A stretch of 64,000 bases of DNA from Candidatus Doudnabacteria bacterium (GTDB lineage Bacteria > Patescibacteriota > Doudnabacteria > UBA920): positions 702,305 to 766,304 of the forward strand of contig CAVYGQ010000001.1 in NCBI GenBank assembly GCA_963768175.1, written 5' to 3'. A program made the position numbers and the translations under genes. The notes under the pieces are model-generated. The model searched no databases, was not told where the DNA came from, and worked only from the letters and a program-made list of their open reading frames with translations. Positions 3,567-64,000 of this stretch are shown here, in pieces. Numbering within the stretch: position 1 is the stretch's first letter; every line of letters begins with the position of its first letter.

Positions 3567-6539
3567 CTACAATACTTTTTTCAGATATTGGCCGGTGTAA
3601 GAAGCCTTAACTTTTGCTAAATCTTCGGGCGTGCCAATGGCCACAACCTGGCCGCCTTTGTCTCCGCCTTCCGGGCCTAAGTCCACAACCCAGTCCGCGG
3701 TTTTTATCATATCCAAATTGTGTTCAATAACCACCACGGTGTTGCCTTTGTCCACCAGTTTATTTAGCACGCTGATTAAGCGCTTGACGTCGGCAAAATG
3801 CAAACCCGTGGTCGGCTCATCCAGCAAATACAGAGTCCGCCCAGTGGAGGCGCGCGAAAGTTCCGTGGCCAGCTTAATCCGCTGCGCCTCGCCGCCGGAA
3901 AGCGTAGTGGCGTTTTGCCCCAGGCACATATAGCCCAAACCGACCTGGCTTAAGGTTTCCAGTTTTTTGTGGATTTGCGGCAGATTGGCGAAAAAGATTT
4001 TGGCCTCGTCCACGGTCATTTCCAAAACATCGGCAATGGTTTTGTCTTTGTAATGGATTTCCAAAGCCTGCTGGTTGTAGCGCTTACCGCCGCATTCTTC
4101 GCAGGTAATGTAAACGTCGGGCAAAAAATTCATTTCCACCATAATGACCCCGTCGCCGGCGCACTTTTCACAGCGGCCGCCTTTAACGTTAAAGCTGAAC
4201 CGGCCGGCCTTGTAGCCGCGCATGCGGGCTTCCCTGGTGTCGGCAAAAATATCGCGGATCGGGGTAAACAGGCCGGTATAGGTGGCCGGGTTGCTGCGGG
4301 GGGTGCGGCCAATGGGGCTTTGGTCTATGTTGATGATTTTGTCTATATGCTCCACGCCAAGGATTTTTTTGTGTTTGCCCGGCTCTTCCTTGCTGTTGTA
4401 AAAATACTTGTAAAGCGCGCGGGCCAAAATATCGTGGAACAGCGTGGATTTGCCGCTGCCGGAAACGCCGGTCACGCAGATAAATTTTCCCAACGGGAGG
4501 TCCACGTTAATTTCCTTTAAATTAAACTCCGCGGCGCCAAAAATGGAAAGTTTGCGCCCGTTGCCCGGCCGCCTTCTTTTGGGCACTTCTATAAATTCCC
4601 TGCCGGCCAAATACTGGCCGGTCAGGCTTTTAGCGCTTTTTTGTATATCCCTGGGCGTACCCTCGGCCACCAATTCCCCGCCGTGCTTGCCGGCGCCCGG
4701 GCCGATGTCCACCACCCAGTCGGCTTCGCGGATGGTTTCTTCGTCGTGCTCCACCACAATTACCGTGTTCCCCAAGTCGCGCAAATCTTTTAGGGTCTGC
4801 AAAAGTTTGCGGTTGTCGCGCTGGTGCAAACCGATGGAAGGCTCGTCTAATATATAAAGAACGCCGGTTAGGCCCGAGCCGATTTGCGTGGCCAAACGGA
4901 TGCGCTGGGCTTCCCCGCCGGAGAGGCTGTCGGCGGCGCGGTCCAAAGACAAATACGCCAACCCGACGTTAAGCAAAAAAGCCAAACGGCCGCTGACCTC
5001 CTTTAGCACCTGTTTGGCAATGGCCAAATCTTTTTGGTTTAAGGTCTTGTTTAAATCCCGAAAAAAATTAAAGGCGGCCTGGATGTTCATGGCCGAGGCG
5101 TCCACAATTCCCACTCCGCCCACCAGCACGGCCAAAACTTCGGGCTTAAGGCGTTTGCCCTGGCAGGACGGGCATCGGCGCACGCGCATATAATTTTCTA
5201 TTTCGCTGCGCATGTATTCGGAATCGGTTTCGCCGTAGCGGCGCTCCAAATTCGGGATAACGCCTTCAAAAGCGGTGTTCATCTCAAACTCGCCGTCGCG
5301 GGTGGAAAATTCGCCCATGACTTTAACTTTTTGCCCGCCGGTACCGTAAAGGATTATGTCTATAAATTTTTTGGGCAAATCTTTAACGGGCGTATTCACG
5401 GAAAAACCGTACTCTCTGGCTACGGCCTGCAGGATGCGGCTATACCAGGACAGGCGCGACGTGGTTTTGCTCCAGGGGCGGATGGCGCCTTCGGCCAAAG
5501 TCAAACGCTGGTTGGGCATAACCAAATCCGGCTCCACGGTCAGCTTATTGCCCAGGCCTTTGCATTCCGGGCAGGCGCCATGCGGGTTGTTAAAACTAAA
5601 ATCCCGCGGATCAAGTTCGGAGAACTGCACGTGGCCTTCCGGACAGGCGAATTTTTGCGACAGTACAATCTCCTGCGGAGATTGTACCTTATTACTCTCT
5701 CCCTTCTTGTCCGCCGAAGCTTTCTTGTCCAACGTAGCCTTGGCGGAGTCGGAAGCGAAGGCGGATGGGAGAGAGTGCCCCGAACGAAGTGAGGGGGAGA
5801 GAGGGTTATTAAAATCTTCGACTTTTACCACCATCGCAATCCCATCCCCAAGGTCCAAAGCTTTCTCCAGTGATTCCGAAAGTCTGCCCTTGTCTTGAGG
5901 ATTGATGCTCAAACGGTCCACCACCACGTCTATGTTGTGCTTTTTTTGCTTATCCAAATTCAGCCGCTCGGCCTCGTTTAAATCCATAACCGTCTTGTCC
6001 ACGCGGACGCGGGCAAAACCGGCTTTCTTGATTTGTTCAAAAATCACGCGGTGTTCGCCTTTTTGGTCTTTAATAAACGGCGCCAGCAAAATAATTTTCG
6101 TGCCGGGCTTAAAACTCAACAGTTGCTCCACCATGGCGGCAATGGTTTGCCCCTGGATTTTTTTGCCGCAAACCGGACAGTGCGGCTGGCCGATGCGCGC
6201 CCAAAGCAGGCGCATGTAGTCGTAAATTTCCGTAACCGTGCCCACGGTTGACCTGGGGTTATGCGAAGCGGATTTTTGGTCTATGGATATTGCCGGGCTA
6301 AGGCCTTCTATTTTGTCCACGTCCGGTTTGTCCATCAGGCCAATAAACTGCCGCGCGTAGGCGGAAAGCGATTCCACATAGCGGCGCTGGCCTTCGGCGT
6401 AAATGGTGTCAAAAGCCAAAGACGACTTGCCGGATCCTGACAGGCCGGTTAACACCACCAGCTTGTTCCGTGGCAAATCTACGTCCAAATTTTTTAAATT
6501 GTGCTGCCGCGCCCCGCGGATGGAAATTTTGTCGTACAT
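3567..6539 (-). CDS. uvrA: Excinuclease ABC subunit A
   Basis: 990 aa. [14 protein letters not shown], duplicated ABC ATPase domains, zinc fingers (CPxC). An extra ~40-aa low-complexity segment is encoded by the palindromic element at 5694-5806. Confidence 0.95.
5694..5806. repeat. Palindromic element inserted in frame into uvrA
   Basis: Arms ctctctccc / gggagagag (repeated). Encodes [40 protein letters not shown] in the UvrA frame. Confidence 0.55.
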
Positions 6540-6576
6540 GTAGCGACCCTAATTACCCGAATGTCATCCGAATTAT

Positions 6577-6595
6577 CCGAATGGGCCCAATTCGG
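6577..6595. promoter_or_regulatory. Inverted repeat CCGAATGGGCCCAATTCGG upstream of uvrA, within an array of CCGAAT/ATTCGG repeats. Candidate operator.
   Basis: Palindrome ~60 nt upstream of the uvrA start (6539, minus). Surrounding 6555-6620 contains >=6 copies of the CCGAAT/ATTCGG hexamer. Confidence 0.3.
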
Positions 6596-6669
6596 GTCAT
6601 TCGGGTATAATTCGTAAATTCGGGTCGATAAATAAATGAGATAGACTGGTAGCAATTTTACCACATATG

Positions 6670-7600
6670 TCAAGAGAGGGCAAGAGCCTAAGGGCGGGTA
6701 TACTAGGGCAGTTGGAACAAGAGTAATATACAGTTTATGATAATTAACACTCTTGTTTTATGATAGCTCTCTTAAACCAAATACCGTCGGAAGCCAAAAT
6801 TAAGCAACAATTAAGGAAAATCGTTTTCGGAAAGAATTTGGCCTGTCCCAGGTGCCGCAGCAGAAAAGTGTATTCATCAGAAAACCGTTATCGCTGCCAG
6901 AGATGCCGCAAACCCTTTGGCCTGCTGACTGGCACTTGGCTTTCAGGGATGAAATTAAACCTCAGAACTTTCTACGCTCTACTCTGGTGCTGGACTCAAA
7001 GGATTCCCGTACTTCAGTCCCAGAAACTCTGCCATGTGGGGGAAGAAGCGGTTTACCACTGGTTTAGGCAATTTCGATTGCATTTGCCCGATTTACAGCC
7101 CATTTTAACAGGCTGTGTCCAAATGGATGAAGCTTACTTTAAACAACTTTCATTACTATTGGCTAAGCAAGTCGGGAGTAAAAAACTGGCGCATCAAGTT
7201 ATTTTTAAAAATTCTGTTAACAAGACTGAAGCCTCGCAATTCATTTTTCAAAGCATAGAGCCTAACACTAAGCTGCAAACCGACGGCTCAGGCATCTACA
7301 AAAAGATTGAGCAGTGGTGGCAGGTGAAGCATAAAGTTGATATACACAAAAAATTTGAGTTTGGATTAACCTCTGAAATTGAAGGCATGTTTGGCAACCT
7401 CAGGACTTTTATCCGACGGATGTACCACCATACTACCCCAGAATACCTGCCGGAATATGTGAGTGAATTTTGCCTCAGGTTTTCCTCACCGGAAATCTTT
7501 AGTTCGCCTAATGTTTACTTATCTAAAACGCTGAAATCTGTTCCATTTGACTAGGAATACCCCTAAGGGCTAATATTCCCCCTCTTAAGATAAAGATGTT
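6670..7600 (+). mobile_element. IS1595-family insertion sequence (approximate ends)
   Basis: Single transposase ORF. Imperfect terminal inverted repeats (caagagaggg...cctaagggc at ~6672-6700 versus gcccttagg...cccctcttaag at ~7561-7600). Sits between uvrA and a GC-rich block. Confidence 0.45.
6760..7554 (+). CDS. IS1595-family (ISXO2-like) DDE transposase
   Basis: 264 aa. N-terminal zinc ribbon CPRCRS...CQRCRK. LTGTWLSGMKLNLRTFYALLWCW helix motif. ...VQMDEAYF... and ...QTDGSGIYKKI... segments match the IS1595 DDE domain layout. Confidence 0.75.
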   Translation: MIALLNQIPSEAKIKQQLRKIVFGKNLACPRCRSRKVYSSENRYRCQRCRKPFGLLTGTWLSGMKLNLRTFYALLWCWTQRIPVLQSQKLCHVGEEAVYHWFRQFRLHLPDLQPILTGCVQMDEAYFKQLSLLLAKQVGSKKLAHQVIFKNSVNKTEASQFIFQSIEPNTKLQTDGSGIYKKIEQWWQVKHKVDIHKKFEFGLTSEIEGMFGNLRTFIRRMYHHTTPEYLPEYVSEFCLRFSSPEIFSSPNVYLSKTLKSVPFD

Positions 7601-8299: not shown

Positions 8300-8520
8300 A
8301 ACATCCTCCTTCTGGCCGGGATTGCCGGCCCAACTGATACAAATCCAATAACCAGAAACTACCAGATAATAGACATCCGGTCAAGGTGCGATTATAATTA
8401 TTTGAGATACCGATATACAGATTCATTCGGATGATACTGATAATACAGATACCTTTTTCAATACGCATCAGTATTGTCCGTATCATCGGTATTCATATCC
8501 GTATATCAGTATCATATTTT

Positions 8521-10542
8521 ATGCCCGACCTCAAACAAAAGCTTAAAAATATTCCCCAAAAACCAGGCGTCTACCTTTTTAAAGATAAGCACGGGGTTGT
8601 TTTATACGTGGGCAAAGCCAAAAATTTAAAAGCGCGCGTCAGCCAATACTTAAGCGGGCATGACGAACGCGAGCAAATCCCCTATTTGATGGAAGAGGCC
8701 GTTGATGTTGATTACACGGTCGTAAATAACGAACTGGAAAGCCTATTTTTGGAAAACACGCTTATTAAGCAGTATTTGCCCAAGTATAATATTTTACTGC
8801 GCGACGACAAAAATTACGCTTTTATAAAAATTGACTACTCAACGGAGATTCCCCAAATTGGATATGCGAGAAAAATTGATAGTTATCGGCGTCATCCTGA
8901 CCCTGAGCGAAGCGAAGGGGAAGGATCTCTTAAACAATCGGTGAAAAGAGATTCCTCGGCTGCACTCGGAATGACACCGGAAGATAAGTTCTTCGGTCCG
9001 TATAGCGCCGCATACAAAATCCGCAACACTTTGCATTTAATGCGCAAAATTTTTCCTTACTGCTCGGCGCAAAAAGTTTCCGGCAAGCCGTGCTTCTACT
9101 ATCACCTGCACCGCTGCCCGGGCGTGTGCATAGGCAAAATTTCGCTTAATGAATACAAACTCCAGCTCAAAAAAATTGAAGACTTTTTGGCCGGCAACAC
9201 GGGCAAAATCGGCAAACAACTGCAAAGCGAGATGCGCCAAGCGGCCATAAAAAAACAGTTTGAAAAAGCCGCAAGGCTTCGCGACCAGTTAAACTCCTTA
9301 AAACTTTTGGAAGAACACCAAACGGTAATTTTAGCCAAAAAAGTGGATTGGGATATTGTGTCTTTGGCATCTTCCGATGGCTATACCTGCATAAATTTAT
9401 TTAAAGTCCGCAGCGGCAAGCTGCAGGATAAGGAAAATTTTGTATACGAAACTAATGTTGATTATTTGCGCGGCCGCGCAAATAATCAACAAGACGAAAT
9501 TTTGCAAAAATTTTTGGAGCAATACTATTTGGAAACTTCCAGCATTCCCAAAATTATTTACGCCCAGTACCCAGCCCAAGGATATCGGCTGATAGAAAAA
9601 CTAATACGCTCGCGGTGCGGCCGCGCAACCAAAATTATTACGCCCCAAAGAGGCAAAGCCAAAAAACTGGTAAAGCTTGGGGTTGTCAACGCGCAGGAAT
9701 ATTTGACCAAATGGCTTTCGGACCAGGCCGGAAATTTGCCCGCCCGCAACGACTTCGTCGTAGCGAAGTCGGGCGGGGACAAAATCAACCGCGCATTACA
9801 GGGCTTAAAAGATATTTTGAAGTTGGAAAAAATTCCCCAACGGATTGAGTGCTACGACATTTCCAATATCCAAGGGACCAACGCGGTGGGTAGCATGGTG
9901 GTGTTTAATAAAGGCCTGCCGGCTAAAAGCGAATACCGCAAATTTAAAATCCGTTCCAAGTCCACGCCGGACGATTTTGCGATGATGAAGGAAATGCTAG
10001 GGAGGAGATTCGCCCGATCTGTTATTGCGAGGAGTGCATCCGACGAAGCAATCTTATCGGAGAAAGGATTGCCGCGCCCCTCGGATGCACTCGGGGCTCG
10101 CAATGACAAAGGAAGCTGGCCTCTTCCAGAGCTCATCGTAATCGACGGCGGCAAAGGCCAGTTGTCTGCAGCGATTGAAGTACTTACAACATACAACACA
10201 CAACACACAACTCCAATAATCGGCCTTGCCAAACGCATTGAAGAAATCTTTGTGCCGGGCAAATCGGATCCGATAATTTTATCGCACGACGACCCCGCTC
10301 TCCAGCTCCTGCAAAGATTGCGCGACGAAGCTCATCGTTTTGGCATAATCTTTCACCGCAAACTCCGTTCCAAAGAAGCGATAAAATCCGCGCTGGACGA
10401 CATCCCGGGGCTAGGCCCCAAAACCAAAAAACTTTTAAAAACCAAATTCGGAACCGTGGCGGATGTCAGAAAAGCCAGCTCTGATGAATTGACAAAAGTT
10501 GTCGGGGTAAAGTTGGCACAAACGATTAAACAAAATTTATAA
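8521..10542 (+). CDS. uvrC: Excinuclease ABC subunit C
   Basis: GIY-YIG N-terminus (KPGVYLFKDKHGVVLYVGKAKNLKARVSQY), UvrBC domain, RNase H-like and C-terminal HhH. The likely true start is the ATG at 8521 (MPDLKQK...); the ORF-track start at 8431 is an in-frame extension through AT-rich repeats. Contains two in-frame palindromic inserts. Confidence 0.9.
   Translation: MPDLKQKLKNIPQKPGVYLFKDKHGVVLYVGKAKNLKARVSQYLSGHDEREQIPYLMEEAVDVDYTVVNNELESLFLENTLIKQYLPKYNILLRDDKNYAFIKIDYSTEIPQIGYARKIDSYRRHPDPERSEGEGSLKQSVKRDSSAALGMTPEDKFFGPYSAAYKIRNTLHLMRKIFPYCSAQKVSGKPCFYYHLHRCPGVCIGKISLNEYKLQLKKIEDFLAGNTGKIGKQLQSEMRQAAIKKQFEKAARLRDQLNSLKLLEEHQTVILAKKVDWDIVSLASSDGYTCINLFKVRSGKLQDKENFVYETNVDYLRGRANNQQDEILQKFLEQYYLETSSIPKIIYAQYPAQGYRLIEKLIRSRCGRATKIITPQRGKAKKLVKLGVVNAQEYLTKWLSDQAGNLPARNDFVVAKSGGDKINRALQGLKDILKLEKIPQRIECYDISNIQGTNAVGSMVVFNKGLPAKSEYRKFKIRSKSTPDDFAMMKEMLGRRFARSVIARSASDEAILSEKGLPRPSDALGARNDKGSWPLPELIVIDGGKGQLSAAIEVLTTYNTQHTTPIIGLAKRIEEIFVPGKSDPIILSHDDPALQLLQRLRDEAHRFGIIFHRKLRSKEAIKSALDDIPGLGPKTKKLLKTKFGTVADVRKASSDELTKVVGVKLAQTIKQNL
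8895..8980. repeat. Palindromic element in frame within uvrC (copy 1)
   Basis: Inverted segments gagcgaagcgaagg...ctcggaatgac and aggatctctt / aagagattcct. Encodes HPDPERSEGEGSLKQSVKRDSSAALGMTPED. Confidence 0.55.
10008..10110. repeat. Palindromic element in frame within uvrC (copy 2)
   Basis: ttattgcgaggagtgcatccga ... tcggatgcactcggggctcgcaatga inverted repeat. Encodes ARSVIARSASDEAILSEKGLPRPSDALGARNDKGSW. Confidence 0.55.
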
Positions 10543-10675
10543 AATCGGAAGTCGGCACTATCATCCGACATGCCGCCCTGTCGAATGACAAGGACGGACT
10601 AATCGGAATGTCAGAACCTATGGTTTTCCATCCGATTTATCCGATTTTCTGACTCTCCGATTTTTCCGCCATACA

Positions 10676-11021: not shown

Positions 11022-11132
11022 CATTCCGATCCGGATATCCAGATAAAATCCGGATCAACGGATAACTGCGGATGCAAAAATCCGTAGACATCAGCAGATC
11101 CGGATGCATCCGTATATCGGGATCGCTTTACG

Positions 11133-18271: not shown

Positions 18272-19678
18272 TTACTTTAATTTGTTGATGAGGTTTGTAA
18301 CCTCGTCAATTTTTTGTCTCAACAGCTCCTTGCTGTCTGCTTCCACATTCAAACGGAGCAAATTTTGCGTGTTAGAAACCCTTAAGTTAAACCGCCAGGA
18401 CGGATAATTAAAATCAAAACCGTCTACGTTGTCTATTTGCGCATTTTTGTAATGCTCTCTTACTTTGTCCAAAATATTCTCGTTTTCAAGTTCAAAATTT
18501 ATTTCCTCGCTAATGAAAAACTTCTCCCGCAAGGGTTTTAGGATTTCAGAGAAGGTTCTTGGCTTCAAATCACCCCCTCCTTTATCCTCCCCCGTCAAGG
18601 GGGAGGAAATGGAATTGCAGAATAATATTTCCAAAACCGCCAAAAACGGCATCAGGCCGTTATCCAAATAAAAATTATCCTTAAAATAATAGTGGCCCGA
18701 GGTTTCGCTGCCGAAGACCGCGCCTTCTTTCATCATCCGTTCCTTAATAAAGGAATGCCCGGCCTTGGCCATAACGGACTTCCCGTTGTTTTGTTCAACG
18801 ACATAGTCTATAACCCTGACCACGCGGGTGTCGTGCAAAATTTTCGCGCCCGGATATTTTTTTAAATAATACTCACTAAGCAGAGCATTGATATAAGCCG
18901 GAGTAACAAATTCGCCTTTTTCGTCAAAAAAGAAACAGCGATCCGCGTCCCCATCCCAGGCCACGCCCAAATCCGGCTTTAGCTCTTTTATGGCCGCGAT
19001 GGTTTCCGGCCGGTTGGAAGGCAGCAACGGGTCGGAAGGGCCTTTGGGAAAACTGCCGTCTAGATGGTCGTTTAAAACTTTTACAAACTTAATCGGCAAC
19101 AAAGTTTTTAATTTTTCTATGGCCGGATTGGCCATACCAAAATTGGCGTTAGCCACAATTTTTAACGGTTTGATTTTGCTGATATCAAAAGGTTCTAATA
19201 CGTGCTTATAATAATTATCATAAATCTCCTTTTTCTCCACGCTTCCTTTATCCCCACTGGCCACTGTCCACTGTCCACTAACCACTAAGTCCCGAATTTG
19301 ATATATACCACTGTCCCCGGAAATCGGTTTGCCTTTCTCCCGCACCATTTTTAAGCCTCCCCATTCCTTGGGATTATGACTGGCCGTAACTTGGATGCCG
19401 CCGTCTACATTTAGCGTGGCCGCGGCAAAATATAGCTGGTCAGTGGAAACCAAACCAATATCAATTACGTTTACTCCGGCATCGGTTAAGCCTTTAATAA
19501 CGGCTTCCGAAAACTCTTCACCGGTCAGGCGCATATCATGCCCCACAACCACAATTTTTGGACTTAAAAATTTTGCGTATGCTTGCGCTATCTTATAAAC
19601 CAAATCCGCGTTAATCTGCTCCGGATAAATCCCGCGGATGTCGTAAGCTTTAAATATTGAAGTATCTATTTTGTCCAT
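18272..19678 (-). CDS. Phosphoglucomutase/phosphomannomutase family protein
   Basis: 468 aa. Active-site TASHNP. Four-domain PGM/PMM layout. Contains an in-frame G/C palindromic insert at 18585-18607 and an in-frame short tandem repeat (ccactg)n at ~19225-19262. Confidence 0.85.
   Translation of the reverse strand: MDKIDTSIFKAYDIRGIYPEQINADLVYKIAQAYAKFLSPKIVVVGHDMRLTGEEFSEAVIKGLTDAGVNVIDIGLVSTDQLYFAAATLNVDGGIQVTASHNPKEWGGLKMVREKGKPISGDSGIYQIRDLVVSGQWTVASGDKGSVEKKEIYDNYYKHVLEPFDISKIKPLKIVANANFGMANPAIEKLKTLLPIKFVKVLNDHLDGSFPKGPSDPLLPSNRPETIAAIKELKPDLGVAWDGDADRCFFFDEKGEFVTPAYINALLSEYYLKKYPGAKILHDTRVVRVIDYVVEQNNGKSVMAKAGHSFIKERMMKEGAVFGSETSGHYYFKDNFYLDNGLMPFLAVLEILFCNSISSPLTGEDKGGGDLKPRTFSEILKPLREKFFISEEINFELENENILDKVREHYKNAQIDNVDGFDFNYPSWRFNLRVSNTQNLLRLNVEADSKELLRQKIDEVTNLINKLK
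18585..18607. repeat. G-run/C-run palindrome tcctcccccgtcaagggggagga, in frame within the mutase gene
   Basis: Perfect 9-bp arms. Encodes part of LTGEDKGGGDLKP. Confidence 0.6.
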
Positions 19679-19818
19679 AAGCTTATTTTAGCATAAAAAC
19701 AAGTTCTTGCTAAAAATTTTAACAAAAATAAAAACCCTTCTTAAGGGGTGAGGGGGCGGCAAATAGCATACCACCCCCCCCCAAGATGACTACTTTGAAC
19801 TGCCGGTCGCGGCAGCCC

Positions 19819-20235: not shown

Positions 20236-21333
20236 ATGAGTTTTCAGATAGGTATCGTTGGTTTACCAAATGTAGGCAAATCAACATTATTTAACGCCAT
20301 TACCAAAAGCAAAGTTGAGGCGGCAAATTACCCGTTTGCCACCATTAACCCTAACGTGGGCGTGGTGGCTGTGCCCGATGAGCGGCTGGCCAAGCTGGCA
20401 GTTTTGGAAAAGAGTGAAAAAATTGTACCCACGGCCATTGAATTTGTGGATATTGCCGGGCTGGTTAAAGGCGCCAGTAAAGGCGAAGGTTTGGGCAACC
20501 AATTTTTAAGCCACATCCGCGAAGTAAACGCCATTCTGGAAGTGGTACGGTTTTTTGTGGACGATGACATTATCCACGTCCAGGGCAACGTTGACCCAAA
20601 GCGCGATATGGAAACCGTTGCCATTGAACTGCAATTGGCCGATCTTCAAAACGTGGAAAACCGATTATCTAGTGTTTCCCGCCAGGCCAAAAGTGGCGAG
20701 CGCGAGGCAATTATCAAAAAGGCTGTTTTGGAAAAATACAAAACGGCGCTGGAAGCCGGAGCCATGGCCAACACCGTGCATTTAACGGACGAAGAAAAAG
20801 AGCACAGCAAGGATATCCAGCTGCTTACTACGAAACCAATACTTTTTGTGGCTAACGATAAATTTGATTTAAATAAAAAGGAGTTTACTCAATCCCCAGA
20901 TGACCGTCATCTGGATGACGGTCATCTGGGGCAAAAAATGATCCAAATTGACGCCCAATTGGAATCCGAGCTCGCCGAACTTTCCGACGCCGAGCGCGTG
21001 GAGTATTTAAAAGAATTGGGCTTGCCCGAGTCGGGCCTGGATAAAATCATTAAGCAGGCTTACAAAACTTTAGGGCTGATTACTTTTATAACCGCCGGGC
21101 CAAAAGAAAGCAAGGCCTGGACTTGCCCCAAAGGCACCAAAGCGCCGCAGGCAGCGGGTATTATCCATACCGATTTTGAAAAAGGGTTTATCCGCGCGGA
21201 GGTAATCCAATGGGACAAATTATTGGAAGCCGGTGGCTATGTCCAGGCGCGGGACAAAGGCTGGCTAAGGGTGGAAGGCAAAGAATACGTAATTGCAGAT
21301 GGGGATGTGGTTCATTTTAGGTTTGCCAATTAG
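20236..21333 (+). CDS. ychF: Ribosome-binding ATPase YchF (Obg-family GTPase)
   Basis: GLPNVGKSTLFNA, C-terminal TGS domain. Contains an in-frame tandem palindrome at 20893-20930. Confidence 0.9.
   Translation: MSFQIGIVGLPNVGKSTLFNAITKSKVEAANYPFATINPNVGVVAVPDERLAKLAVLEKSEKIVPTAIEFVDIAGLVKGASKGEGLGNQFLSHIREVNAILEVVRFFVDDDIIHVQGNVDPKRDMETVAIELQLADLQNVENRLSSVSRQAKSGEREAIIKKAVLEKYKTALEAGAMANTVHLTDEEKEHSKDIQLLTTKPILFVANDKFDLNKKEFTQSPDDRHLDDGHLGQKMIQIDAQLESELAELSDAERVEYLKELGLPESGLDKIIKQAYKTLGLITFITAGPKESKAWTCPKGTKAPQAAGIIHTDFEKGFIRAEVIQWDKLLEAGGYVQARDKGWLRVEGKEYVIADGDVVHFRFAN
20893..20930. repeat. Tandem perfect palindromes ccccagatgaccgtcatctgg / atgacggtcatctgggg, in frame within ychF
   Basis: Encodes SPDDRHLDDGHLG. 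Confidence 0.65.
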
Positions 21334-23132: not shown

Positions 23133-23197
23133 ATGAACAAAAATAATAAAAATTAAATAAATGACAAAAACGGACTGCAGTAAATTTTTGCTCATTT

Positions 23198-46824: not shown

Positions 46825-46865
46825 CTCCTTCTTGGCGTCATTCCGAGCGAAGCGAGGAATCTCTT
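46825..46865. repeat. Intergenic palindromic element cgtcattccgagcgaagcgaggaatctc, related to the uvrC insert family
   Basis: Shares gagcgaagcga and tcggaatgac segments with 8895-8980. Confidence 0.5.
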
Positions 46866-46997: not shown

Positions 46998-48200
46998 TCA
47001 TGTCGCCGCGCGCTCCGGTTTTACTTCTTCAGCCGCTGTTTCCTCTTTTGCAACTTCCGACGTTACTTCCGCCGGCGTTTCTTCCCCCTTGTCCGACGTA
47101 GCTTCCACCTTCGCTGAAGCTTCGGCGGACACGTCAGCGGAGTCGGAGCCAATCTTCTCCCCGTTAATATCTATTTTCCATCCCGTTAACCGGGCGGCCA
47201 ATCTGACATTTTGTCCGGCTTTGCCGATGGCTAAAGAAAGTTGGTCTTCCAAAACGCCGACTTTAGCTTCTCTGGCTTGTTCGTCCAGCTGGACATTTAA
47301 AATTTTAGCCGGCGACAGCGCGTTGGCGATAAATTTTACCTGATCGTCGGAAAATTCAATAATATCTATTTTTTCCCCGCCGAGTTCAGCCATAACCGTC
47401 TGCACGCGGCTGCCCTTTTGCCCCACGCAGCTGCCAATGGGGTCTATGCCGTCCTGGTTGGAAATTACGGCAATTTTGGAGCGCGAGCCAGCTTCCCTTG
47501 CCACGGCCTTGATTTCCACGCTGCCGTTAAAAATTTCCGGCACTTCCAGTTCAAACAGCTTACGCACCATATCAGGATGGGAGCGCGACAAAGTAATTTT
47601 CGGGCCCCTAGTGGCCGGCTCAACGTGGAGGATTAAAACTTTTATCCGCTGGCCGACGGTATATTTTTCGCCGCGGATTTGCTCGCTGGGAAACAATACG
47701 CCAGCGGCTTTGCCCAAGTCTACAAGCACGGTATCACCTTCAACTCTCTGGACAATGCCATTTTGCAATGTGCGCTCTTTGGCCTTGAAGTCCGAGAACT
47801 GCACGTTCCTTTCCGCTTCCCTCAATTTTTGGATAATCACCTGCTTGGCGGTTTGCGCAGCAATACGGCCGTAAGACGTGCCGGTTTTAGGGGTAATTTC
47901 CGTACGGATTTCATCCCCGACTTTAGCCGATTTCTTTTTTTTCTTGGCTTCATCCAAATCTATAAATTTTTGGGGGTCTTCTTCCGCTTCAGTCAGAGTT
48001 TCCACCACGGTTTTCACGTCAAAAACTTTGGTGGCCATATTCTCCGGATTAAATTCCACCACAATATTTTGGTTCTTTTCACCGTAGTCTTTCCTGAAAG
48101 CCGCTGCCAAAGACGCTTCTATCATGGAAATTAAATCCTGGCGGCTGATGCCTTTTTCTTCAGCTATTTGATCGAGAGCCTGTTCTAGTTGTTCATTCAT
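46998..48200 (-). CDS. nusA: Transcription termination/antitermination factor NusA
   Basis: N-terminal domain, S1, two KH domains. Acidic C-terminal tail. Confidence 0.9.
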   Translation of the reverse strand: MNEQLEQALDQIAEEKGISRQDLISMIEASLAAAFRKDYGEKNQNIVVEFNPENMATKVFDVKTVVETLTEAEEDPQKFIDLDEAKKKKKSAKVGDEIRTEITPKTGTSYGRIAAQTAKQVIIQKLREAERNVQFSDFKAKERTLQNGIVQRVEGDTVLVDLGKAAGVLFPSEQIRGEKYTVGQRIKVLILHVEPATRGPKITLSRSHPDMVRKLFELEVPEIFNGSVEIKAVAREAGSRSKIAVISNQDGIDPIGSCVGQKGSRVQTVMAELGGEKIDIIEFSDDQVKFIANALSPAKILNVQLDEQAREAKVGVLEDQLSLAIGKAGQNVRLAARLTGWKIDINGEKIGSDSADVSAEASAKVEATSDKGEETPAEVTSEVAKEETAAEEVKPERAAT

Positions 48201-49873: not shown

Positions 49874-49944
49874 AAACGACGAAAATTAAAAAATTACTGC
49901 GTCAATATTTTTGTCAATTTTGTCATTTATTTAATTTTTGTCAT

Positions 49945-50850
49945 TTATTTTATTTCCTGATATAACTTTGTTATTGCCCGCGCTTTGCCATCCGCCGATG
50001 CTTCTATCAATGCCCCGTTGATCTGCAAAACTCCTTCCTCTTCCACTTCGTTCTTGAACTTCCCTTCGGGGTGCAAAAATTTTTCCAAAACATTTTCCTT
50101 TTTTACGCCGATTACCCCGTTAAGCGCGCCAGTCATGCCGACGTCGGTAAGGTACGCTGTGCCGTTTGGTAATACGCGATTATCAACCGTGGGCACGTGG
50201 GTATGGGTACCTAAAACCGCAGTAACCCGGCCGTCCACATAGTAGCCAAAAGCGATTTTTTCGCTCGTAGCCTCGGCATGCAGGTCCACTATTATTATAT
50301 CACCTTTTTGGGATTGGTCTAAAATTAGCTTGTCTATAGTTAAAAACGGATTATCTATACTGCCTTCAAACTGATTTTCCATAAATATCTGGCCGTTTAA
50401 GTTGATAATGAGGAATTGCTGATATTCGTCACCCCTCCCTAGCCCTCCCCCTGAAGGGGAGGGAACGACACCGGTGATTCCTGCGGTTTCCCCTCCCTGG
50501 AGGGGAGGGGTTAGGGGAGGGTGAATTTGTTTAAAAAACCGATAATATCCATGCCCGGGCAAGCCGCTGGGAAAATTCGCCGGGCGGATTAATTTATCAT
50601 ATTTTTCAAAGCATTCTTCAGAAAGGTCGCCTTTGTTAAAAATATGGTTGCCCGAGGTATAGCAGTCTATGCCCAACTGGTCAATTTCCGCCAAAGTCGA
50701 CGGGGTCACACCCTTTCCGTGCGCCAAATTTTCCACATTGGCGATTACCACATCGGGCTGATACTTTTCCCGCCACTGCGGCAAGACCTCGCGGAGAATT
50801 TTCCGCCCGCCTTTGCCGACTATGTCGCCGATGAATAATATCTTTGCCAT
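49945..50850 (-). CDS. ymdB: YmdB-family metallophosphoesterase (2',3'-cyclic-nucleotide phosphodiesterase, TIGR00282-like)
   Basis: MAKILFIGDIVGKGGR..., GNHIF motif. Contains a ~30-aa Pro/Gly-rich in-frame insert encoded by a G/C palindromic element. Confidence 0.85.
   Translation of the reverse strand: MAKILFIGDIVGKGGRKILREVLPQWREKYQPDVVIANVENLAHGKGVTPSTLAEIDQLGIDCYTSGNHIFNKGDLSEECFEKYDKLIRPANFPSGLPGHGYYRFFKQIHPPLTPPLQGGETAGITGVVPSPSGGGLGRGDEYQQFLIINLNGQIFMENQFEGSIDNPFLTIDKLILDQSQKGDIIIVDLHAEATSEKIAFGYYVDGRVTAVLGTHTHVPTVDNRVLPNGTAYLTDVGMTGALNGVIGVKKENVLEKFLHPEGKFKNEVEEEGVLQINGALIEASADGKARAITKLYQEIK
50431..50523. repeat. G-run/C-run palindromic element in frame within ymdB
   Basis: cccctccctagccctccccctgaaggggagggaac...cccctccctggaggggaggggttaggggagggtg. 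Encodes HPPLTPPLQGGETAGITGVVPSPSGGGLGRG. Confidence 0.6.
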
Positions 50851-61377: not shown

Positions 61378-61890
61378 ATGGATAGAAAAATTTTAAAAGT
61401 GACCGTTGCTGCGCTAGCTTCGGCTTATTTTTTTTCTTGCATAGCCAACCCCGGGCAATGGCATTTTATTGACGGGGTTAATTTGTTGGTCCACGAAGGC
61501 GGCCATGTAATTTTTTCCCCATTTGGGATGTTCCTGTATATTCTGGGAGGCAGTCTAACGCAGGTCTTGGTGCCTTTGCTGTTTGTTTTTTACTTTTTTC
61601 ATTTCGGCCAAAAATATTCCGCCAGTCTGACGCTTTTTTGGGTGGGGGAAAGTTTGCTGAATGTTTATCTTTACGCGGCGGACGCACAAAAAATGCAGCT
61701 GCAGCTGCTGTTCGGCGATAACTCTATCCATGACTGGAACTGGCTGCTTATTTATACCGGACAGCTTCACCATACCAAAGGCATTGCAACATCTATTGAA
61801 ATTTTGGGAATTATTGCCATTATTATGGCGGCATGCGGGGCATTTTATTTTGCATGGACGCAAAAAAACCAGTTACAACGAGACCTATGA
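61378..61890 (+). CDS. Small polytopic membrane protein with HEGGH (HExxH) motif; putative membrane metalloprotease
   Basis: 170 aa, 4-5 TM helices, LLVHEGGHVIF. Confidence 0.35.
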   Translation: MDRKILKVTVAALASAYFFSCIANPGQWHFIDGVNLLVHEGGHVIFSPFGMFLYILGGSLTQVLVPLLFVFYFFHFGQKYSASLTLFWVGESLLNVYLYAADAQKMQLQLLFGDNSIHDWNWLLIYTGQLHHTKGIATSIEILGIIAIIMAACGAFYFAWTQKNQLQRDL

Positions 61891-62968
61891 TTAGTAAATC
61901 TAAACTGATTTTAGCCATAGAAACCAGCTGCGACGAAACAGCCGCTGCGGTTTTGTCATATACCCCCCCTTTAATCCCCCCCTTTTTAAGGGGGGAAACA
62001 GGGGGGGTTGGCCAAAAATAAAAACCTTATCCTCGGTGGTCAAATCCCAAATTCCCATCCACAAATTGTTTGGCGGGGTGGTGCCGGAAGCGGCGGCACG
62101 GGCGCATGTCAAAAATATTTTACCAGTTGTGGAAAAAGCCCTATCTACCAGCCACTGTTCATTATCCACTATTGATTATATTGCCGTTACCCAAGGACCG
62201 GGGCTTATCCCATCACTAATTGTCGGCGTGGAATTTGCCAAGGCGCTGTCGCTGGCAACAAAAAAACCCATAATCCCGGTAAACCACATGCTGGGGCACC
62301 TATACTCGCCTTTTGGCCGCCTACAAGCTACTAGCTACAAGCTACAAGCTAACTTGTTCCCGATTATATCCCTGATAGTTTCCGGCGGGCATACCATTTT
62401 AACGCTAATGGAAAATGAAAAAAAATACAAAGTCCTCGGACAAACCGTGGACGACGCCGCAGGCGAATCTTTTGATAAGATAGCCAAACTTTTAGCCCTC
62501 TCCTACCCTGGCGGGCCCCAAGTCAGCCGGCTGGCGGAAAAATCAAAATCCCATATCCAGTTTCCCAGACCGATGATAAATAGCAAAGATTACAATTTTT
62601 CTTTTTCCGGACTGAAAACCGCCGTGCTGTATTATCTGCGCGATAACTCAAAGACAAAAAAAGAAGATGTCTGCAAAGCTTTCCAAGACGCAGCTGTTGA
62701 CGTACTGGTATCCAAAACCCTGCGCGCGGTAAAAGAATACGGCGCCAAATCCGTTAGCCTATCGGGCGGCGTGGCCGCTAATAAAGCTTTACGAAAGGCC
62801 TTAAAGCTTAAATCTGAAATCTTTAATTTAAGTTTTTTTGTTCCCCAAAAAAACTTATGCACGGACAACGCCGAAATGGTAGGCCTGGCCGCGGCTTTTA
62901 TGCTCCATAACGGATTTAAACCAAAAAATTATCGGCAAATAAAAGCCGACTCCAACCTTGAACTTTAA
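61887..62968 (+). CDS. tsaD: tRNA N6-adenosine threonylcarbamoyltransferase TsaD (Kae1/YgjD family), interrupted by a palindromic G/C element with an apparent frameshift
   Basis: N-terminus MISKSKLILAIETSCDETAAAVL (61887...) and body ...LFGGVVPEAAARAHV... (from 62036) both match TsaD. They are separated by element 61961-62012, with a TAA stop at 62019 and a frame change. The homopolymer runs (C8, C7, G6, G7) make a sequencing/assembly frameshift plausible. Confidence 0.7.
61961..62012. repeat. G-run/C-run palindromic element ccccccctttaatccccccctttttaaggggggaaacagggggggttgg inside tsaD
   Basis: Inverted C-runs and G-runs. Encodes TPPLIPPFLRGETGGVGQ in the upstream frame. Confidence 0.6.
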
Positions 62969-63029
62969 TTCTCGATGGTTTATACTATATATAAGCTTAT
63001 GTTTTGGCCGTCACCAAAATAAAAAGCGC

Positions 63030-63220
63030 CGGAAGAAAACAGCCCATAAATGGGCACGCTACAACCCGCACAATGTAGCGCGCCGATTTATCGGCCTGCA
63101 TTAGACCCGGCCGGCAGTCAGCCGTTATCTGATAAAATTAAGTCCGCCAATTGACGGAAATTTGAGATGGTACCGCCCGCGAGGGTTCTCAAGCACCACT
63201 TTGTGGTGTTTTTGTTTACA
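63030..63220 (+). ncRNA. Candidate structured RNA element between tsaD and nnr (unclassified)
   Basis: GC-rich block in an AT-rich spacer ending with hairpin caccactttgtggtg plus TTTTT. Contains a GGTACCGC segment. No ORF. Confidence 0.2.
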
Positions 63221-63305
63221 TATATCTATAATATAGAAAACAATCCGCTGACCTGTCCGCCGAAGCTTTAGCGAAGGCGGAAGCCTCAACCTAAGCGGAT
63301 AAATT

Positions 63306-64000
63306 TATGAACTATCCGATTATCAACAAAAAAATCATCAAACAACTCCGTTTGCCCAAACCCCGCTCCCATAAACGCGACAACGGCCGGCTGCTGATTA
63401 TTGCCGGCAGCGATAAATATTTTGGCGCCATGATATATGCAATTAAAATCGCTTCACGATTAGTTGATTTGGTTTATTTGCTGACTACGCGGGAAAACCA
63501 AAAGCTCGTTGCAAAATTAAAAATCCAAACCGCGGAATTTATGCCTATAAAAAGTTTTTCCAATTTCCCTCTCCCTCGAGGGAGAGGGCAGGGTGAGGGG
63601 GTAACAAGCGAAGTTGATTGCATTCTAGCCGGCCCGGGTATGGGAATATCGGCCAACACCAAACGATTAGTCTTACAAGTTCTAAAGTCCGACAAAAAAG
63701 CCGTGCTGGATGCCGATGCCTTAAATGTCTTAGACGACAAGCTTAAAAAATACCTTTCTCCATCGCACATTCTCACCCCTCACCATAAAGAATTTTATCG
63801 ATTATTCAGAATTCAAGCCACGACACAAAACGCGTCAAAAATGGCGAAAAAATATCACTGCCACATTGCGCTGAAAGGTCCGGTTGATATTATTGCCGAG
63901 CCAGATGGAAAAGTTGCTTTAAATAAGACCGGAAATGCCGGCATGACCAAAGGCGGCACCGGCGACGTTTTAGCCGGGCTCATTGCCGGATTATACTGCA
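63306..64000 (+). CDS. nnr: ADP/ATP-dependent NAD(P)H-hydrate dehydratase (YjeF C-terminal / Nnr family), runs off window end; contains an in-frame palindromic insert
   Basis: ...LLIIAGSDKYFGA..., GGTGDVLAG motif. Insert ccctctccctcgagggagagggcagggtgaggggg at 63565-63606 encodes FPLPRGRGQGEGV. Confidence 0.7.

Follow-up and report, generated by a model that had tools for sequence, protein, structure and literature searches.

At least 12 short palindromic segments lie within eight conserved genes of a 64,000-nucleotide stretch of DNA (the window) from a Doudnabacteria-like CPR genome (949-kb contig, GC ~47%). They are probably RPE-like selfish palindromes that selection has filtered to stop-free, in-frame insertions in loops, one family of which (family A) a DUF559 nuclease would mobilise. 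All segments are insertions relative to some homologues without them, among both solved structures and CPR relatives, and all except the tsaD copy, which is one base short within a homopolymer run, preserve the reading frame. Their sites are indel hot spots, at which relatives hold other palindromic inserts. The original prediction, that palindromes behaving like the RPEs of Rickettsia are inserted in frame into essential genes as lineage-specific segments, is supported by these alignments and by the further copies described below. A CPR bacterium with a tiny genome would thus be translating selfish hairpin repeats into additional disordered loops of its essential proteins. The literature searched held no account of such elements for CPR or for DUF559, in agreement with the novelty claimed for them, although the accompanying description of the genome as low in GC was wrong.

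Palindromic elements in the window

The identities of all host genes were confirmed with NCBIfam and Pfam (Table 1). The coding DNA of the window holds 10 perfect hairpins with a stem of at least 9, against 1.8 ± 1.1 expected from a codon-shuffle control, and three with a stem of at least 12, against none expected. Palindromes are present in the genes named originally as carrying in-frame copies; that list was put at eight or more genes but comprises seven, and nusA brings the total to eight, with uvrC inserts II and III and the short perfect palindrome of uvrA as additional segments. Most of the palindromes located earlier were confirmed by DNA-parameter folding against dinucleotide shuffles (z -2.3 to -7.9), including uvrC 10008-10110 (insert IV, z -5.3). 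The exceptions are uvrA 5694-5806, a weak hairpin (z -1.7; RNA-parameter fold of 5690-5790, -45.3 kcal/mol), and uvrC 8895-8980 (insert I), whose folding does not differ significantly from that of the shuffles (z -0.7) and which was assigned to family B by sequence.

Table 1 Palindromic elements and insertions in the window (z, hairpin z-score)
Feature	Position	Strand	Description
uvrA insertion	5663..5828	-	aa 238-288, ~46 extra aa
uvrA perfect palindrome	5663-5687	-	11-bp stem, z -11.2
uvrA long imperfect palindrome	5694-5776	-	CTCTCTCCC…GGGAGAGAG, inner stem TCCGCC…GGCGGA, family C-like
uvrC insert I	8891..8975	+	diverged family B, GTCATCCTGA…GAGCGAAGCGAAGG…AAGAGATTCCTCGG…CTCGGAATGAC
uvrC insert II	9456..9491	+	perfect 36-bp palindrome TGTTGATTATTTGCGCGGCCGCGCAAATAATCAACA, z -7.2
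uvrC insert III	9739..9777	+	39-bp hairpin CCCGCCCGCAACGACTTCGTCGTAGCGAAGTCGGGCGGG, encodes PARNDFVVAKSGG, z -4.0
uvrC insert IV	10021..10107	+	87-bp (29-codon) family B element GTTATTGCGAGG…CTCGCAATGAC
PGM/PMM insertion	18560..18615	-	~17 aa, NSISSPLTGEDKGGGDLKP; 17-residue gap vs PDB 5kl0
PGM family A hairpin	18585-18607	-	TCCTCCCCC-gtcaa-GGGGGAGGA, z -4.0
ychF palindrome	20894..20931	+	perfect 17-bp arms CCCCAGATGACCGTCAT-ctgg-ATGACGGTCATCTGGGG, encodes PDDRHLDDGHLG, z -7.9
Family B solo end, intergenic, clpP–nusA	46837..46863	+	canonical GTCATTCCGAGCGAAGCGAGGAATCTC
nusA family C repeat	47101..47141	-	GCTTCCACCTTCGCTGAAGCTTCGGCGGACACGTCAGCGGA, in frame, C-terminal tail SDSADVSAEASAKVEA
ymdB insertion	50430..50523	-	34 codons, family A double module, z -2.8
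tsaD insert I	61962..62008	+	nested palindrome AC7-TTTAAT-C7-TTTTTAA-G6-AAACA-G7T, z -2.3
tsaD insert II, second variable site	62327..62353	+	short repeat GCTACTAGCTACAAGCTACAAGCTAAC (ATSYKLQA); membership weak
Family C intergenic copy, tsaD–nnr spacer	63244..63284	.	93% identical over 41 bp to 47101-47141, opposite strand
nnr insertion, family A single module	63567..63601	+	CCCTCTCCC·tcga·GGGAGAGGG-CA-GGGTGAGGGGG, hairpin plus extra purine arm

The elements fall into at least three sequence families, the two proposed at the outset and one added here: pyrimidine-run/purine-run hairpins of the type CCCTCCCC…GGGGAGGG (family A), GTCAT(T/C)(C/G)CGAG…CTCG(C/G)AATGAC elements (family B) and TCCGCC/GGCGGA elements (family C). 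The intergenic relatives suggested previously fared unevenly. No significant hairpin forms at either 19745-19790 or 34900-34935 (z -0.7 and +0.4), and the CCGAAT arrays (6557-6618) and 10560-10640, once placed with family B, are a different, AT-rich intergenic repeat. The stretch 46825-46865 does contain a true family B solo end with the canonical 25-mer, which forms no hairpin by itself.

Insertion sites and reading frame

In UvrA, residues 238-288 stand opposite about five residues of PDB 9gxk, a difference of 46 aa. UvrC inserts I, II and IV occupy hot spots at which 51, 31 and 44 of 120 homologues, respectively, have inserts (CPR homologues for site I); insert II falls within hot spot 2 (UvrC residues ~344-352). 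Many of the relatives' inserts at site I belong to the same RRHSE…RMTP family as insert I, which reads RRHPDPERSEGEGS…SSAALGMT, and several at site IV to the family of insert IV, which reads VIARSASDEAI…LGARND and is missing in the solved UvrC structures 2nrt and 3c65; relative to these two, UvrC has 32 additional aa. Insert III is a clean 13-aa insertion between QAGNL and DKINR that 118 of the 120 homologues lack. The ychF palindrome is located in a hypervariable linker, from KKEF to IDAQLESELAEL, which is 7-12 aa long in the CPR relatives where it is shortest and reaches 43 aa elsewhere; the element adds 6-10 aa relative to those shortest relatives, with net length unchanged against Haemophilus influenzae YchF (1jal). 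Nnr, with the inserted peptide FPLPRGRGQGEG (z -2.4), is about 13 aa longer at this site than most of 39 representative homologues and shows no gap at the element against Thermotoga maritima 2ax3.

On its coding strand the ymdB element reads (CACCCTCCCC-TAA-CCCCTCCCC·tcca·GGGAGGGG)-26 nt-(CCCTCCCC·ttca·GGGGGAGGG-CTA-GGGAGGGGTG), a double hairpin enclosed by an outer stem, and adds 34 aa relative to empty CPR alleles. Among loci of CPR relatives the site is empty in five (L003, L005, L006, L007, L009) and filled by other elements in four (L001, L002, L004, L008); it is filled in about 55 of 110 CPR homologues. Residues 115-138 form the sole low-confidence loop of the AlphaFold model of YmdB (pLDDT <50, between two strands), so the insert is predicted to be a disordered surface loop, consistent with the surface-loop placement foreseen for the elements.

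The tsaD copy, listed previously among the in-frame ones, is not in frame: in the assembly the N-terminal frame (ATG 61887) reaches a TAA and the remainder continues in the frame of 62036, and lengthening any one of four homopolymer runs by a base would give a 360-aa ORF. This insert adds 11 aa relative to L003, where the site is empty, and L001 carries a different family A element there. At the second variable site of tsaD, L001 has the family A element TPNPSPKGRGEQ and L003 has neither; peptides of the TSYKLQATS type also occur at the hot spots of YchF and UvrC. Pure Y/R hairpins (Y, pyrimidine-only arm; R, purine-only arm) with stems of at least 7 bp, in the window and in CPR relatives where their setting was examined, are intragenic except for two, which flank a DUF559 gene. 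Among them the tsaD copy alone breaks the frame, the L006 copy left aside, and the other in-gene copies whose frame was examined in the window and CPR relatives are in frame and stop-free.

Copies in other genomes

The original prediction would have treated the palindromes as coincidental had no additional copies been found; such copies exist in L003, YchF P0125, UvrC P0274 and 12 IMG/VR contigs. In L003, a 75-bp composite occurs in tsaD and nusA (~93% identical, same frame); seven of nine genomes lack it at the nusA site, and L006 has a shorter nested form. The ymdB-type peptide HPPLTPPLKGGET…SPLGGGLGRG recurs in P0125 and P0274, which belong to other CPR genomes. Exact matches to the family B 25-mer were detected in the 12 IMG/VR contigs, unrelated environmental contigs in which it mostly forms the inverted ends of 88-100-bp hairpins, and an Acidobacteria locus (L014) and locus L030 likewise carry inverted family B ends as 100-bp hairpins. 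Family B is present twice within one UvrC in P0258, P0274 and P0277. It is read as RHSE…LGMT or as VIP/VIA…RND; the third frame, which would give TGA in GGAATGAC, occurs only with an internal shift that restores the LGMT frame at the right end (P0353, SFRP…SLGMT).

Association of family A with DUF559 genes

Family A modules are inverted end-modules that flank genes for DUF559, a Vsr-like PD-(D/E)XK endonuclease, in many phyla. Such modules border every DUF559 gene found before metagenomes were scanned (L007, L030, L093). Across 80 metagenomic DUF559 loci (GC 33-72%), the density of Y/R hairpins is 3.78 per kb up to 200 bp from the gene ends and 0.18 per kb elsewhere, a 21-fold enrichment; 67 of the 80 loci have at least one flanking hairpin and 35 have them on both sides. 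The flanking architecture is consistent, [h-A']-gene-[A-h], where h is the Y/R hairpin and A or A' an additional arm of pyrimidines or purines next to it. The left module of the ymdB element agrees almost base for base with the module that lies downstream of the DUF559 gene in L117. However, the order of the ymdB modules, [A-h]…[h-A'], is the reverse of that around DUF559 genes, so the element is not a simple internal-deletion derivative. In L007 the DUF559 unit occupies the nusA-clpP spacer, which is short and without the unit in the window and in seven other relatives with a readable spacer.

No DUF559 gene, nor any other candidate transposase for the elements, was found in the window. The single insertion sequence there, an IS1595-family member, has ends unrelated to them. 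Since family A modules are shared with DUF559 flanks, the nuclease acting in trans is the most likely mobilising activity for this family, and the association provides a lead to a possible mobilising enzyme.

Origin of the elements

We propose that at least three families colonised a gene-dense CPR genome, with copies landing in DNA, or being copied into it, largely irrespective of site. Selection would then spare only those copies that lie in a linker or surface loop of the protein concerned, have a length divisible by three and are free of stop codons in the translated frame. Runs made only of pyrimidines or only of purines cannot contain a stop codon, whatever the frame or strand, and family B is open in two of three frames; survivors would therefore be translated as disordered loops rich in Pro/Ser/Leu…Gly/Glu/Arg. 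Permissive loops would become hot spots in which elements are gained, nested, replaced and lost across lineages, and DUF559 would mobilise family A in trans much as RAYTs (REP-associated tyrosine transposases) do REP sequences. Repeated use of the same codon position could alternatively reflect one old, fast-diverging insertion.

It is unlikely that the palindromes were instead born in place in hypervariable CPR linkers, by intra-strand template switching, quasi-palindrome correction or slippage when DNA is replicated or repaired and with no mobile element, their common motifs reflecting convergent stop-free composition. Such an origin accords with the perfect palindromes of ychF, uvrC insert II and uvrA (5663-5687), for which neither the window nor the loci nor the viral contigs yielded another copy; with the ychF segment leaving a length equal to that of 1jal; and with the filled and empty sites compared, where neither a target-site duplication nor a target motif was found. 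Since no second copy was found in the data examined, the singletons (ychF, uvrC inserts II and III) could indeed have originated in place. Left unexplained, however, are the near-identical composite in two unlinked L003 genes, the 41-bp family C pair of the window, the 25-nt ends of family B that recur exactly in unrelated contigs and the near-identity of the ymdB module to DUF559-flanking modules of other phyla.

Retention for usefulness, as RNA hairpins (ribosome pausing, mRNA stability, frameshifting) or as protein interaction loops, appears improbable. Inserts do persist at one site across many relatives, such as VIARSASDEAI…GARND at UvrC site 4, and arm complementarity is kept despite divergence, but presence is patchy among close relatives, unrelated families swap at the same site, disorder is predicted for the YmdB insert, the same elements are also intergenic and around DUF559 genes, and Rfam gave no family match at gathering score. 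The disrupted frame of tsaD, an essential gene, inside its element would suit elements that are removed or skipped before protein is made (intron-like excision, bypassing as with yeast mitochondrial 'byp', or transcriptional slippage) and for which frame is irrelevant. This is very improbable: the in-frame, stop-free state of all other in-gene copies with frame examined is expected only if they are translated, family B shuns its stop-containing frame, and in tsaD the defect amounts to one base within C7/G6/G7 homopolymers, a typical site of assembly error or slippage. Homopolymer-rich hairpins are error-prone and the source is evidently metagenome-derived, yet an assembly or amplification artefact of metagenome-assembled genomes is scarcely credible for insert families that recur site for site across dozens of assemblies made independently (NCBI, ENA, JGI, Logan) and in GTDB genomes.

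Comparison with known repeats

RPEs (Ogata et al. 2000, 2002), as far as the summary in PMC10969869 describes them, are likewise short, palindromic, dispersed repeats in several families, with no identified transposase, lying in frame in unrelated housekeeping genes of a small-genome bacterium and translated as extra peptide segments compatible with the host protein fold. The present elements differ in phylum (CPR/Patescibacteria) and, so far as judged here, in sequence, and are ~25-100 bp long and modular or nested, against ~100-150 bp for RPEs. In addition, different families markedly re-use the same loop, two families occur across phyla rather than being lineage-restricted, and for one family DUF559 is a candidate partner.

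REP/REPIN sequences and their RAYT transposases (Bertels & Rainey 2011, PMC3116915; Di Nocera et al. 2013, PMC3733652) offer a parallel in their 20-40-nt imperfect palindromes, often inverted doublets that form a ~100-bp hairpin, and in repeats that flank a single-copy nuclease or transposase gene, as family A does DUF559. However, the flanked gene here encodes a PD-(D/E)XK endonuclease rather than an HUH/Y1 transposase, the GTAG/CGTC tag is absent, and REPs are extragenic by definition whereas the CPR elements are largely intragenic and translated. Correia, ERIC and Nezha elements (reviewed in PMC10969869) are also small, non-coding and foldable into long hairpins, with terminal inverted repeats (in family B, TGTCATTCCGAGCGAAGCGAGGAATCTC…) and occasional in-frame fusions with host ORFs. 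In the CPR elements, by contrast, in-frame intragenic placement is the rule, and neither a target-site duplication nor a parent insertion sequence with matching ends was detected.

Yeast GC clusters and the double-hairpin elements of Allomyces are mitochondrial elements akin to coding palindromes. Mitochondrial palindromes differ from the CPR elements in being organellar rather than bacterial and in their unrelated sequences, and in Nematomorpha mitochondria both palindrome arms encode conserved protein sequence, not added loops (PMC6649704). They share with the CPR elements G+C-rich hairpins or double hairpins within protein-coding genes whose frame is preserved, and the ymdB element is itself such a double hairpin with an outer stem.

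Host genome and the palindromes in its coding DNA

The palindromic segments of the window show the behaviour of Rickettsia palindromic elements (RPEs) in a bacterium of the candidate phyla radiation (CPR). Their hot spots are pronounced, and one of their families has a nuclease as its candidate partner. The interpretation given in the original prediction, namely short palindromes carried in frame by housekeeping genes, is essentially right, with corrections to the GC content, the tsaD reading frame, the gene count and the membership of intergenic copies. The genome had been taken for a low-GC one; 2-kb blocks of the window have 39-55% GC (~47% overall), and the nearest named relatives of its YmdB, YchF and UvrC are metagenome-assembled genomes (MAGs) labelled 'Candidatus Doudnabacteria' or 'Patescibacteria group', which together identify the host as a small-genome CPR bacterium that is not low in GC. 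Relatives of its YmdB in a scan of GTDB species representatives are at most 74% identical. Coding sequences make up ~80% of the window, and the identities of all host genes were confirmed with NCBIfam and Pfam (table). The count of at least eight host genes was corrected. The longest uvrC ORF begins 30 codons 5' of the conserved start (M31), and this extension crosses an AT-rich repeat (MILIIQIPFSIRISIVRIIGIHIRISVSYF); the database UvrC P0241 (703 aa) probably has an over-extended N-terminus as well.

The in-gene palindromes were found where they had been placed, and their z-scores (DNA folding versus dinucleotide shuffles) are listed in the table; these scores understate the significance of G/C-run hairpins because the shuffles retain G-runs and C-runs. 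When codon order was shuffled inside each gene as a control, the coding DNA of the window had an excess of perfect hairpins: 10 had stems of 9 bp or more, where 1.8 +/- 1.1 were expected, and 3 had stems of 12 bp or more, where 0 were expected. Further palindromes were detected in uvrC and uvrA, as was a repeat in the nusA tail. The intergenic copies fared differently from one another. The segments at 19745-19790 and 34900-34935 form no significant hairpins, the CCGAAT arrays belong to a distinct AT-rich repeat of intergenic DNA, and family membership was rejected for all of these; the copy at 46837-46863 is a true solo end of family B. Rfam reported only two tRNAs in the whole window at the gathering score, and at permissive E-values the hairpins matched only generic miRNA-precursor models below threshold.

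Coordinates of host genes, palindromic elements and other repeats (positions in the window unless a locus is named; z, DNA folding versus dinucleotide shuffles)
Feature	Position	Strand	Family	z	Detail
uvrA	3567-6539	-			NCBIfam/Pfam
uvrA element			C (insert core)	-1.7
uvrA further palindrome	5663-5687			-11.2
CCGAAT/ATTCGG cluster	6557-6618				x6, directly upstream of uvrA
IS1595-family element	6696-7562				transposase gene 6760-7554
uvrC 5' extension	8431-8520
uvrC	8521-10542	+			NCBIfam/Pfam; M31 at 8521
uvrC element	8895-8980 (uvrC-I, diverged family B)			-0.7
uvrC-II	9456-9491			-7.2	perfect 36-mer
uvrC-III	9739-9777			-4.0
uvrC element	10008-10110 (uvrC-IV as first placed)			-5.3
uvrC-IV	10021-10107		B		87-bp long hairpin
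CGGAT/ATCCG cluster	11029-11108				x10
PGM/PMM (phosphoglucomutase/phosphomannomutase)	18272-19678	-			NCBIfam/Pfam
PGM palindrome			A	-4.0
ychF	20236-21333	+			NCBIfam/Pfam
ychF palindrome				-7.9
AT-rich module	23148-23169; 23478-23517; 49906-49945				40 bp, 97.5% identity
Internal repeat	26388-26517; 26700-26829				130 bp, 99% identical
Direct repeat	40155-40387; 44139-44371				233 bp, 98% identical
tRNA-Glu	44366-44440
Intergenic solo end	46837-46863		B
nusA	46998-48200	-			NCBIfam/Pfam
nusA tail repeat and its recurrence	47101-47141; 63244-63284		C		41 bp, 93% identity
ymdB	49945-50850	-			NCBIfam/Pfam
ymdB element			A	-2.8	double module, outer stem closing
tsaD	61887-62968	+			NCBIfam/Pfam
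tsaD-I	61962-62008		A	-2.3
nnr dehydratase domain	63307 to window end	+			NCBIfam/Pfam
nnr element			A	-2.4
Composite copies	L003:2930-3034; L003:14008-14112		C
Outer part of composite, nusA	L006:6458-6523
DUF559 gene	L007:10075-10478 (protein at 10113-10436)
DUF559 gene	L030:11100-11800
DUF559 gene	L093:2800-3500
Phage-like ORFs with family B	L081:6009-8723; L083:5186-6772		B

Insertion sites and hot spots

Judged by alignment, all in-gene segments are insertions relative to homologues without them, as had been proposed, and this was confirmed for UvrA, UvrC, PGM, YmdB, YchF, Nnr and TsaD. Residues 238-288 of UvrA stand opposite ~5 residues in solved UvrA, the C-terminal element of UvrC corresponds to a 32-aa gap against 2nrt and 3c65, and the PGM segment to a 17-aa gap against 5kl0. 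All four uvrC palindromes lie at indel sites among 120 CPR UvrC homologues, where sites 1 and 4 are filled in 51 and 44 sequences, site 2 in ~31 and site 3 in two, the last with a clean 13-aa insertion (PARNDFVVAKSGG) between QAGNL and DKINR. The YmdB site is empty in about half of ~110 CPR homologues (4 residues, GYYRFSK to QQFL), and filled homologues carry 13-52 extra residues belonging to at least six recognisable peptide families; in the YmdB of the window, IHPPLTPPLQGGETAGITGVVPSPSGGGLGR is a peptide that spans the insert. The ychF palindrome falls in a linker whose length varies between 7 and 43 residues in CPR relatives, and in the window this linker is as long as in Haemophilus influenzae YchF. 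The Nnr insert shows no gap against Thermotoga maritima; at this site Nnr exceeds most of 39 representative homologues by ~13 residues. The N-terminal site of TsaD is empty in the Doudnabacteria MAG L003 and occupied by differing elements in the window and in the related CPR locus L001. A surface-loop location had also been predicted: the AlphaFold model of YmdB (mean pLDDT 86.4) falls below 50 only at residues 115-138, which are the insert and join strands 102-109 and 142-152, and on this model the insert is predicted to be a disordered surface loop.

Copies beyond the sites originally listed were also found. L003 carries a 75-bp composite (TTTCCGCCAAAGGCGGATCC.CCTCCCTTCG.GGGTCTGAGGACCCCTCAGGGTCTCGAACGACCGGCGGAAAA) in frame in both tsaD and nusA (~93% identical), the 25-mer of family B recurs in IMG/VR contigs, and the 64-kb window itself holds one family C pair. 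The nusA site of the composite is empty in seven other genomes, and the related CPR locus L006 has just its outer part (TCCGCCAAAGGCGGATCCGCCTCCGGCGGA), which indicates a nested build. At the ymdB site, the elements of the window and of L004 have common outer arms and differing interiors, and the peptide of the window element recurs in a database YchF (P0125) and UvrC (P0274). The same loops are thus re-used: from lineage to lineage they hold elements of different families, and so they are hot spots.

Three families of elements

Family A is a hairpin in which a pyrimidine arm precedes a purine arm (CCCTCCCC-loop-GGGGAGGG); a third arm is often present. Pyrimidine-only and purine-only runs are stop-free in every frame of both strands, and are therefore read as Pro/Ser/Leu…Gly/Glu/Arg peptides. 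With Y/R hairpins defined by a pure pyrimidine arm, a pure purine arm and a stem of at least 7 bp, the window gives six calls, all pyrimidine-first and all within PGM, ymdB, tsaD and nnr; five family A hairpins are counted in its 64 kb.

Family B has the form GTCAT(T/C)(C/G)CGAG…CGAAGC…/…CTCG(C/G)AATGAC and includes uvrC-I (diverged), uvrC-IV and the intergenic solo end. In uvrC-IV, terminal inverted repeats (GTTATTGCGAGG…CTCGCAATGAC) surround a short core, and such inverted ends also occur in the loci L014 and L030 and in IMG/VR contigs. The canonical 25-mer GTCATTCCGAGCGAAGCGAGGAATC has exact matches in 12 IMG/VR contigs, in most of which it forms both ends of near-perfect 88-100-bp hairpins, and ~100-bp elements with the variant GTCATTGCGAG are present in one Acidobacteria MAG and one other MAG. 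CPR proteins read family B in two frames, one giving …LGMT and the other VIPSE/VIARS…RND; a TGA in GGAATGAC interrupts the third, which was seen only with an internal shift that restores the LGMT frame at the right end (database homologue P0353, SFRP…SLGMT). Several genomes carry the family at two sites of one UvrC. In IMG/VR contigs the GTCATTCCGAGCGAAGCGAGGAATC element is in frame in large phage-like ORFs, giving peptides that include VIPSEARNL, so in-frame carriage is wider than CPR; the ORFs adjoining solo ends are likewise large phage-like genes with the element in frame. A search of 1.7 Mb of loci for a gene enclosed by family B ends was negative, and blastn of a perfect hairpin against PLSDB plasmids gave no match.

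Family C comprises TCCGCC/GGCGGA elements, read as 'ADKSA' or 'SAEASAK'. The perfect palindromes of ychF, uvrC-II and uvrC-III are assigned to none of these families and had no second copy in the sequences compared, and scans of viral contigs with the ychF palindrome and the right module of ymdB gave no match.

Family A flanks DUF559 genes

The pattern of the ymdB element matched the nusA-clpP spacer of the related CPR locus L007, which spans 838 bp versus ~80-550 bp in the window and seven other readable relatives. The spacer encodes a 108-aa DUF559 protein (PF04480, E 3e-38; weaker match REase_MTES_1575) of restriction-endonuclease-like fold, and its gene is bracketed by inverted family A modules; this unit is absent from the spacer in the window and in the seven relatives. 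The same family A flanks border the DUF559 genes of L030 and L093/L094, which belong to unrelated organisms, partly of high GC. Across 80 metagenomic DUF559 loci (L095-L174; 33-72% GC), the stretches up to 200 bp from the gene ends contain 133 Y/R hairpins, or 3.78 per kb, and the other 266 kb contain 48, or 0.18 per kb, a 21-fold enrichment; 67 of the loci have at least one such end-proximal hairpin and 35 have them on both sides. For comparison, ymdB loci from outside CPR (1.04 Mb) show a background density of 0.012 per kb. Family A is associated with DUF559.

Each module consists of the CCCTCCCC-loop-GGGGAGGG hairpin (h) and a third arm, either CACCCTCCCC on the 5' side or GGGAGGGGTG on the 3' side, with TAA/CTA between them; an adjacent extra pyrimidine or purine arm is denoted A or A'. 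Upstream of DUF559 genes the layout is CCCTCCCC-loop-GGGGAGGG, TTA/CTA and GGGAGGGGTG, and stops 10-40 nt short of the start codon; downstream it is CACCCTCCCC, TAA/TGA and CCCCTCCC-loop-GGGAGGGG. Orientation counts are 31 h-A' versus 10 A-h upstream, and 44 A-h versus 26 h-A' downstream. The ymdB element of the window contains both module types, nnr has a hairpin with a 3' arm, and the tsaD sites of L001 have a 5' arm with a hairpin. An alignment of family A modules with DUF559 flanks (A3) has a mean column identity of 74%, and apart from a few positions the left ymdB module matches the module downstream of a metagenomic DUF559 gene (L117). The order within the ymdB element, A-h, 26 nt, h-A', is the reverse of that around DUF559 genes, so this element does not derive from a DUF559 unit by simple internal deletion; complete units in the A-h…h-A' order adjoin DUF559 genes in L098, L105 and L108.

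DUF559 is a domain of unknown function that is very common across bacteria. From its association with family A, we infer that it may provide the mechanism by which this family is mobilised. A tentative extension, which we hold to be somewhat short of probable, is that the CCCTCCCC…GGGGAGGG palindromes are cognate repeats of DUF559 in a widespread, undescribed selfish system of the REP/RAYT kind, built on a different nuclease fold (a Vsr-like PD-(D/E)XK endonuclease). Given the scarce intergenic space of CPR genomes, non-autonomous hairpins, including those of at least two other families, would then persist chiefly where they are inserted into essential proteins and translated as loops, and the loops that bear them would become hypervariable hot spots with a steady supply of new peptide segments.

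Reading frame and relation to known systems

Eleven of the 12 in-gene elements are in frame, and the claim that in-gene copies keep the frame holds for all but tsaD. Here the N-terminal frame (ATG 61887) hits TAA and the remainder of the gene is in the frame of 62036, with the break inside the element AC7-TTTAAT-C7-TTTTTAA-G6-AAACA-G7T. One additional base in any of its four homopolymer runs (C7, C7, G6, G7) yields an intact 360-aa TsaD ORF, and extending G6 to G7 yields a symmetric palindrome. The frameshift probably reflects an error in the assembly or slippage at a homopolymer, which is the most economical reading. Translational bypass ('byp') or intron-like removal from RNA would accommodate a broken frame, since such inserts need neither frame nor stop avoidance, whereas the elements described here are in frame and stop-free. 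This rule is predicted by translation and selection and counts against removal before translation; with a 1-nt homopolymer discrepancy as the lone exception, bypass or RNA removal is unlikely for tsaD. The Y/R hairpins examined in CPR relatives are in frame in tsaD, ymdB, a valS/ileS-like gene and others, the only two exceptions being those that flank a DUF559 gene, and one L006 hairpin lies within an open frame.

As palindromic repeats that are in frame in protein genes and read through, the elements are closest in behaviour to RPEs. They are shorter and modular, two of the families extend across phyla, and the host is a Doudnabacteria-like CPR bacterium, not Rickettsia, which excludes membership of the RPE lineage. 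Family B resembles a MITE in having terminal inverted repeats that enclose a short non-coding core. However, comparison of filled with empty alleles at nusA, ymdB and tsaD revealed no duplicated flank that would mark a target-site duplication, and no parent insertion sequence with matching ends was found in the window or, for family B, in 1.7 Mb of loci. The sole insertion sequence of the window, an IS1595-family element between uvrA and uvrC, was considered as a parent and rejected, its imperfect 24-nt inverted ends being unrelated to the palindromic elements. Family A with DUF559 recalls REP/REPIN-RAYT systems, by analogy only, in that cognate palindromes flank a candidate enzyme gene in inverted orientation. 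In contrast, RAYT is a Y1/HUH transposase whereas the flanked gene here encodes a PD-(D/E)XK-type nuclease, and the GTAG or CGTC tag of REPs is missing from family A modules. In a 2024 review of MITEs (PMC10969869), RPEs are set apart as the extreme example of insertion in frame, and CPR is not mentioned. Our literature searches on CPR palindromes, MITEs, in-frame insertion and DUF559 returned no description of such elements, in agreement with the original view that they are not described for genomes of this kind, and the DUF559 literature searched contained no discussion of mobility or flanking repeats.

Implications for CPR proteins

So far, in-frame selfish palindromes have been regarded as peculiar to Rickettsia. 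The hot spots found in UvrA, UvrC, TsaD, YmdB, YchF, NusA and PGM across many independent CPR genomes suggest that they are a general outcome of palindromic repeats invading very compact genomes. The inserts can explain the length variation of 20-50 aa and the low-complexity Pro/Gly loops of CPR proteins, as well as spurious homopolymer frameshifts and over-extended ORF starts, all of which affect annotation, alignment and structure prediction; they may also distort phylogenomic marker alignments. The link to DUF559 provides a testable function for a common domain of unknown function, and it suggests which enzyme might act on one class of the REP-like hairpins of many phyla.

Other repeats in the window

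Several further repeats were observed. The CCGAAT/ATTCGG cluster upstream of uvrA, and a CGGAT/ATCCG cluster upstream of a solute-binding-protein gene with similar motifs around uvrC, may be regulator binding arrays. A 40-bp AT-rich intergenic module with repeated TTGACAAAAAT-like motifs resembles a promoter or operator cassette common to several sites. The 233-bp direct repeat brackets ~3.8 kb carrying a Memo-like gene and a DUF3160 gene, and its second copy adjoins the 3' end of tRNA-Glu; this segment may have arisen by integration of an island or by segmental duplication. The 130-bp repeat lies within a 1185-aa surface protein with fibronectin type III (fn3) domains.
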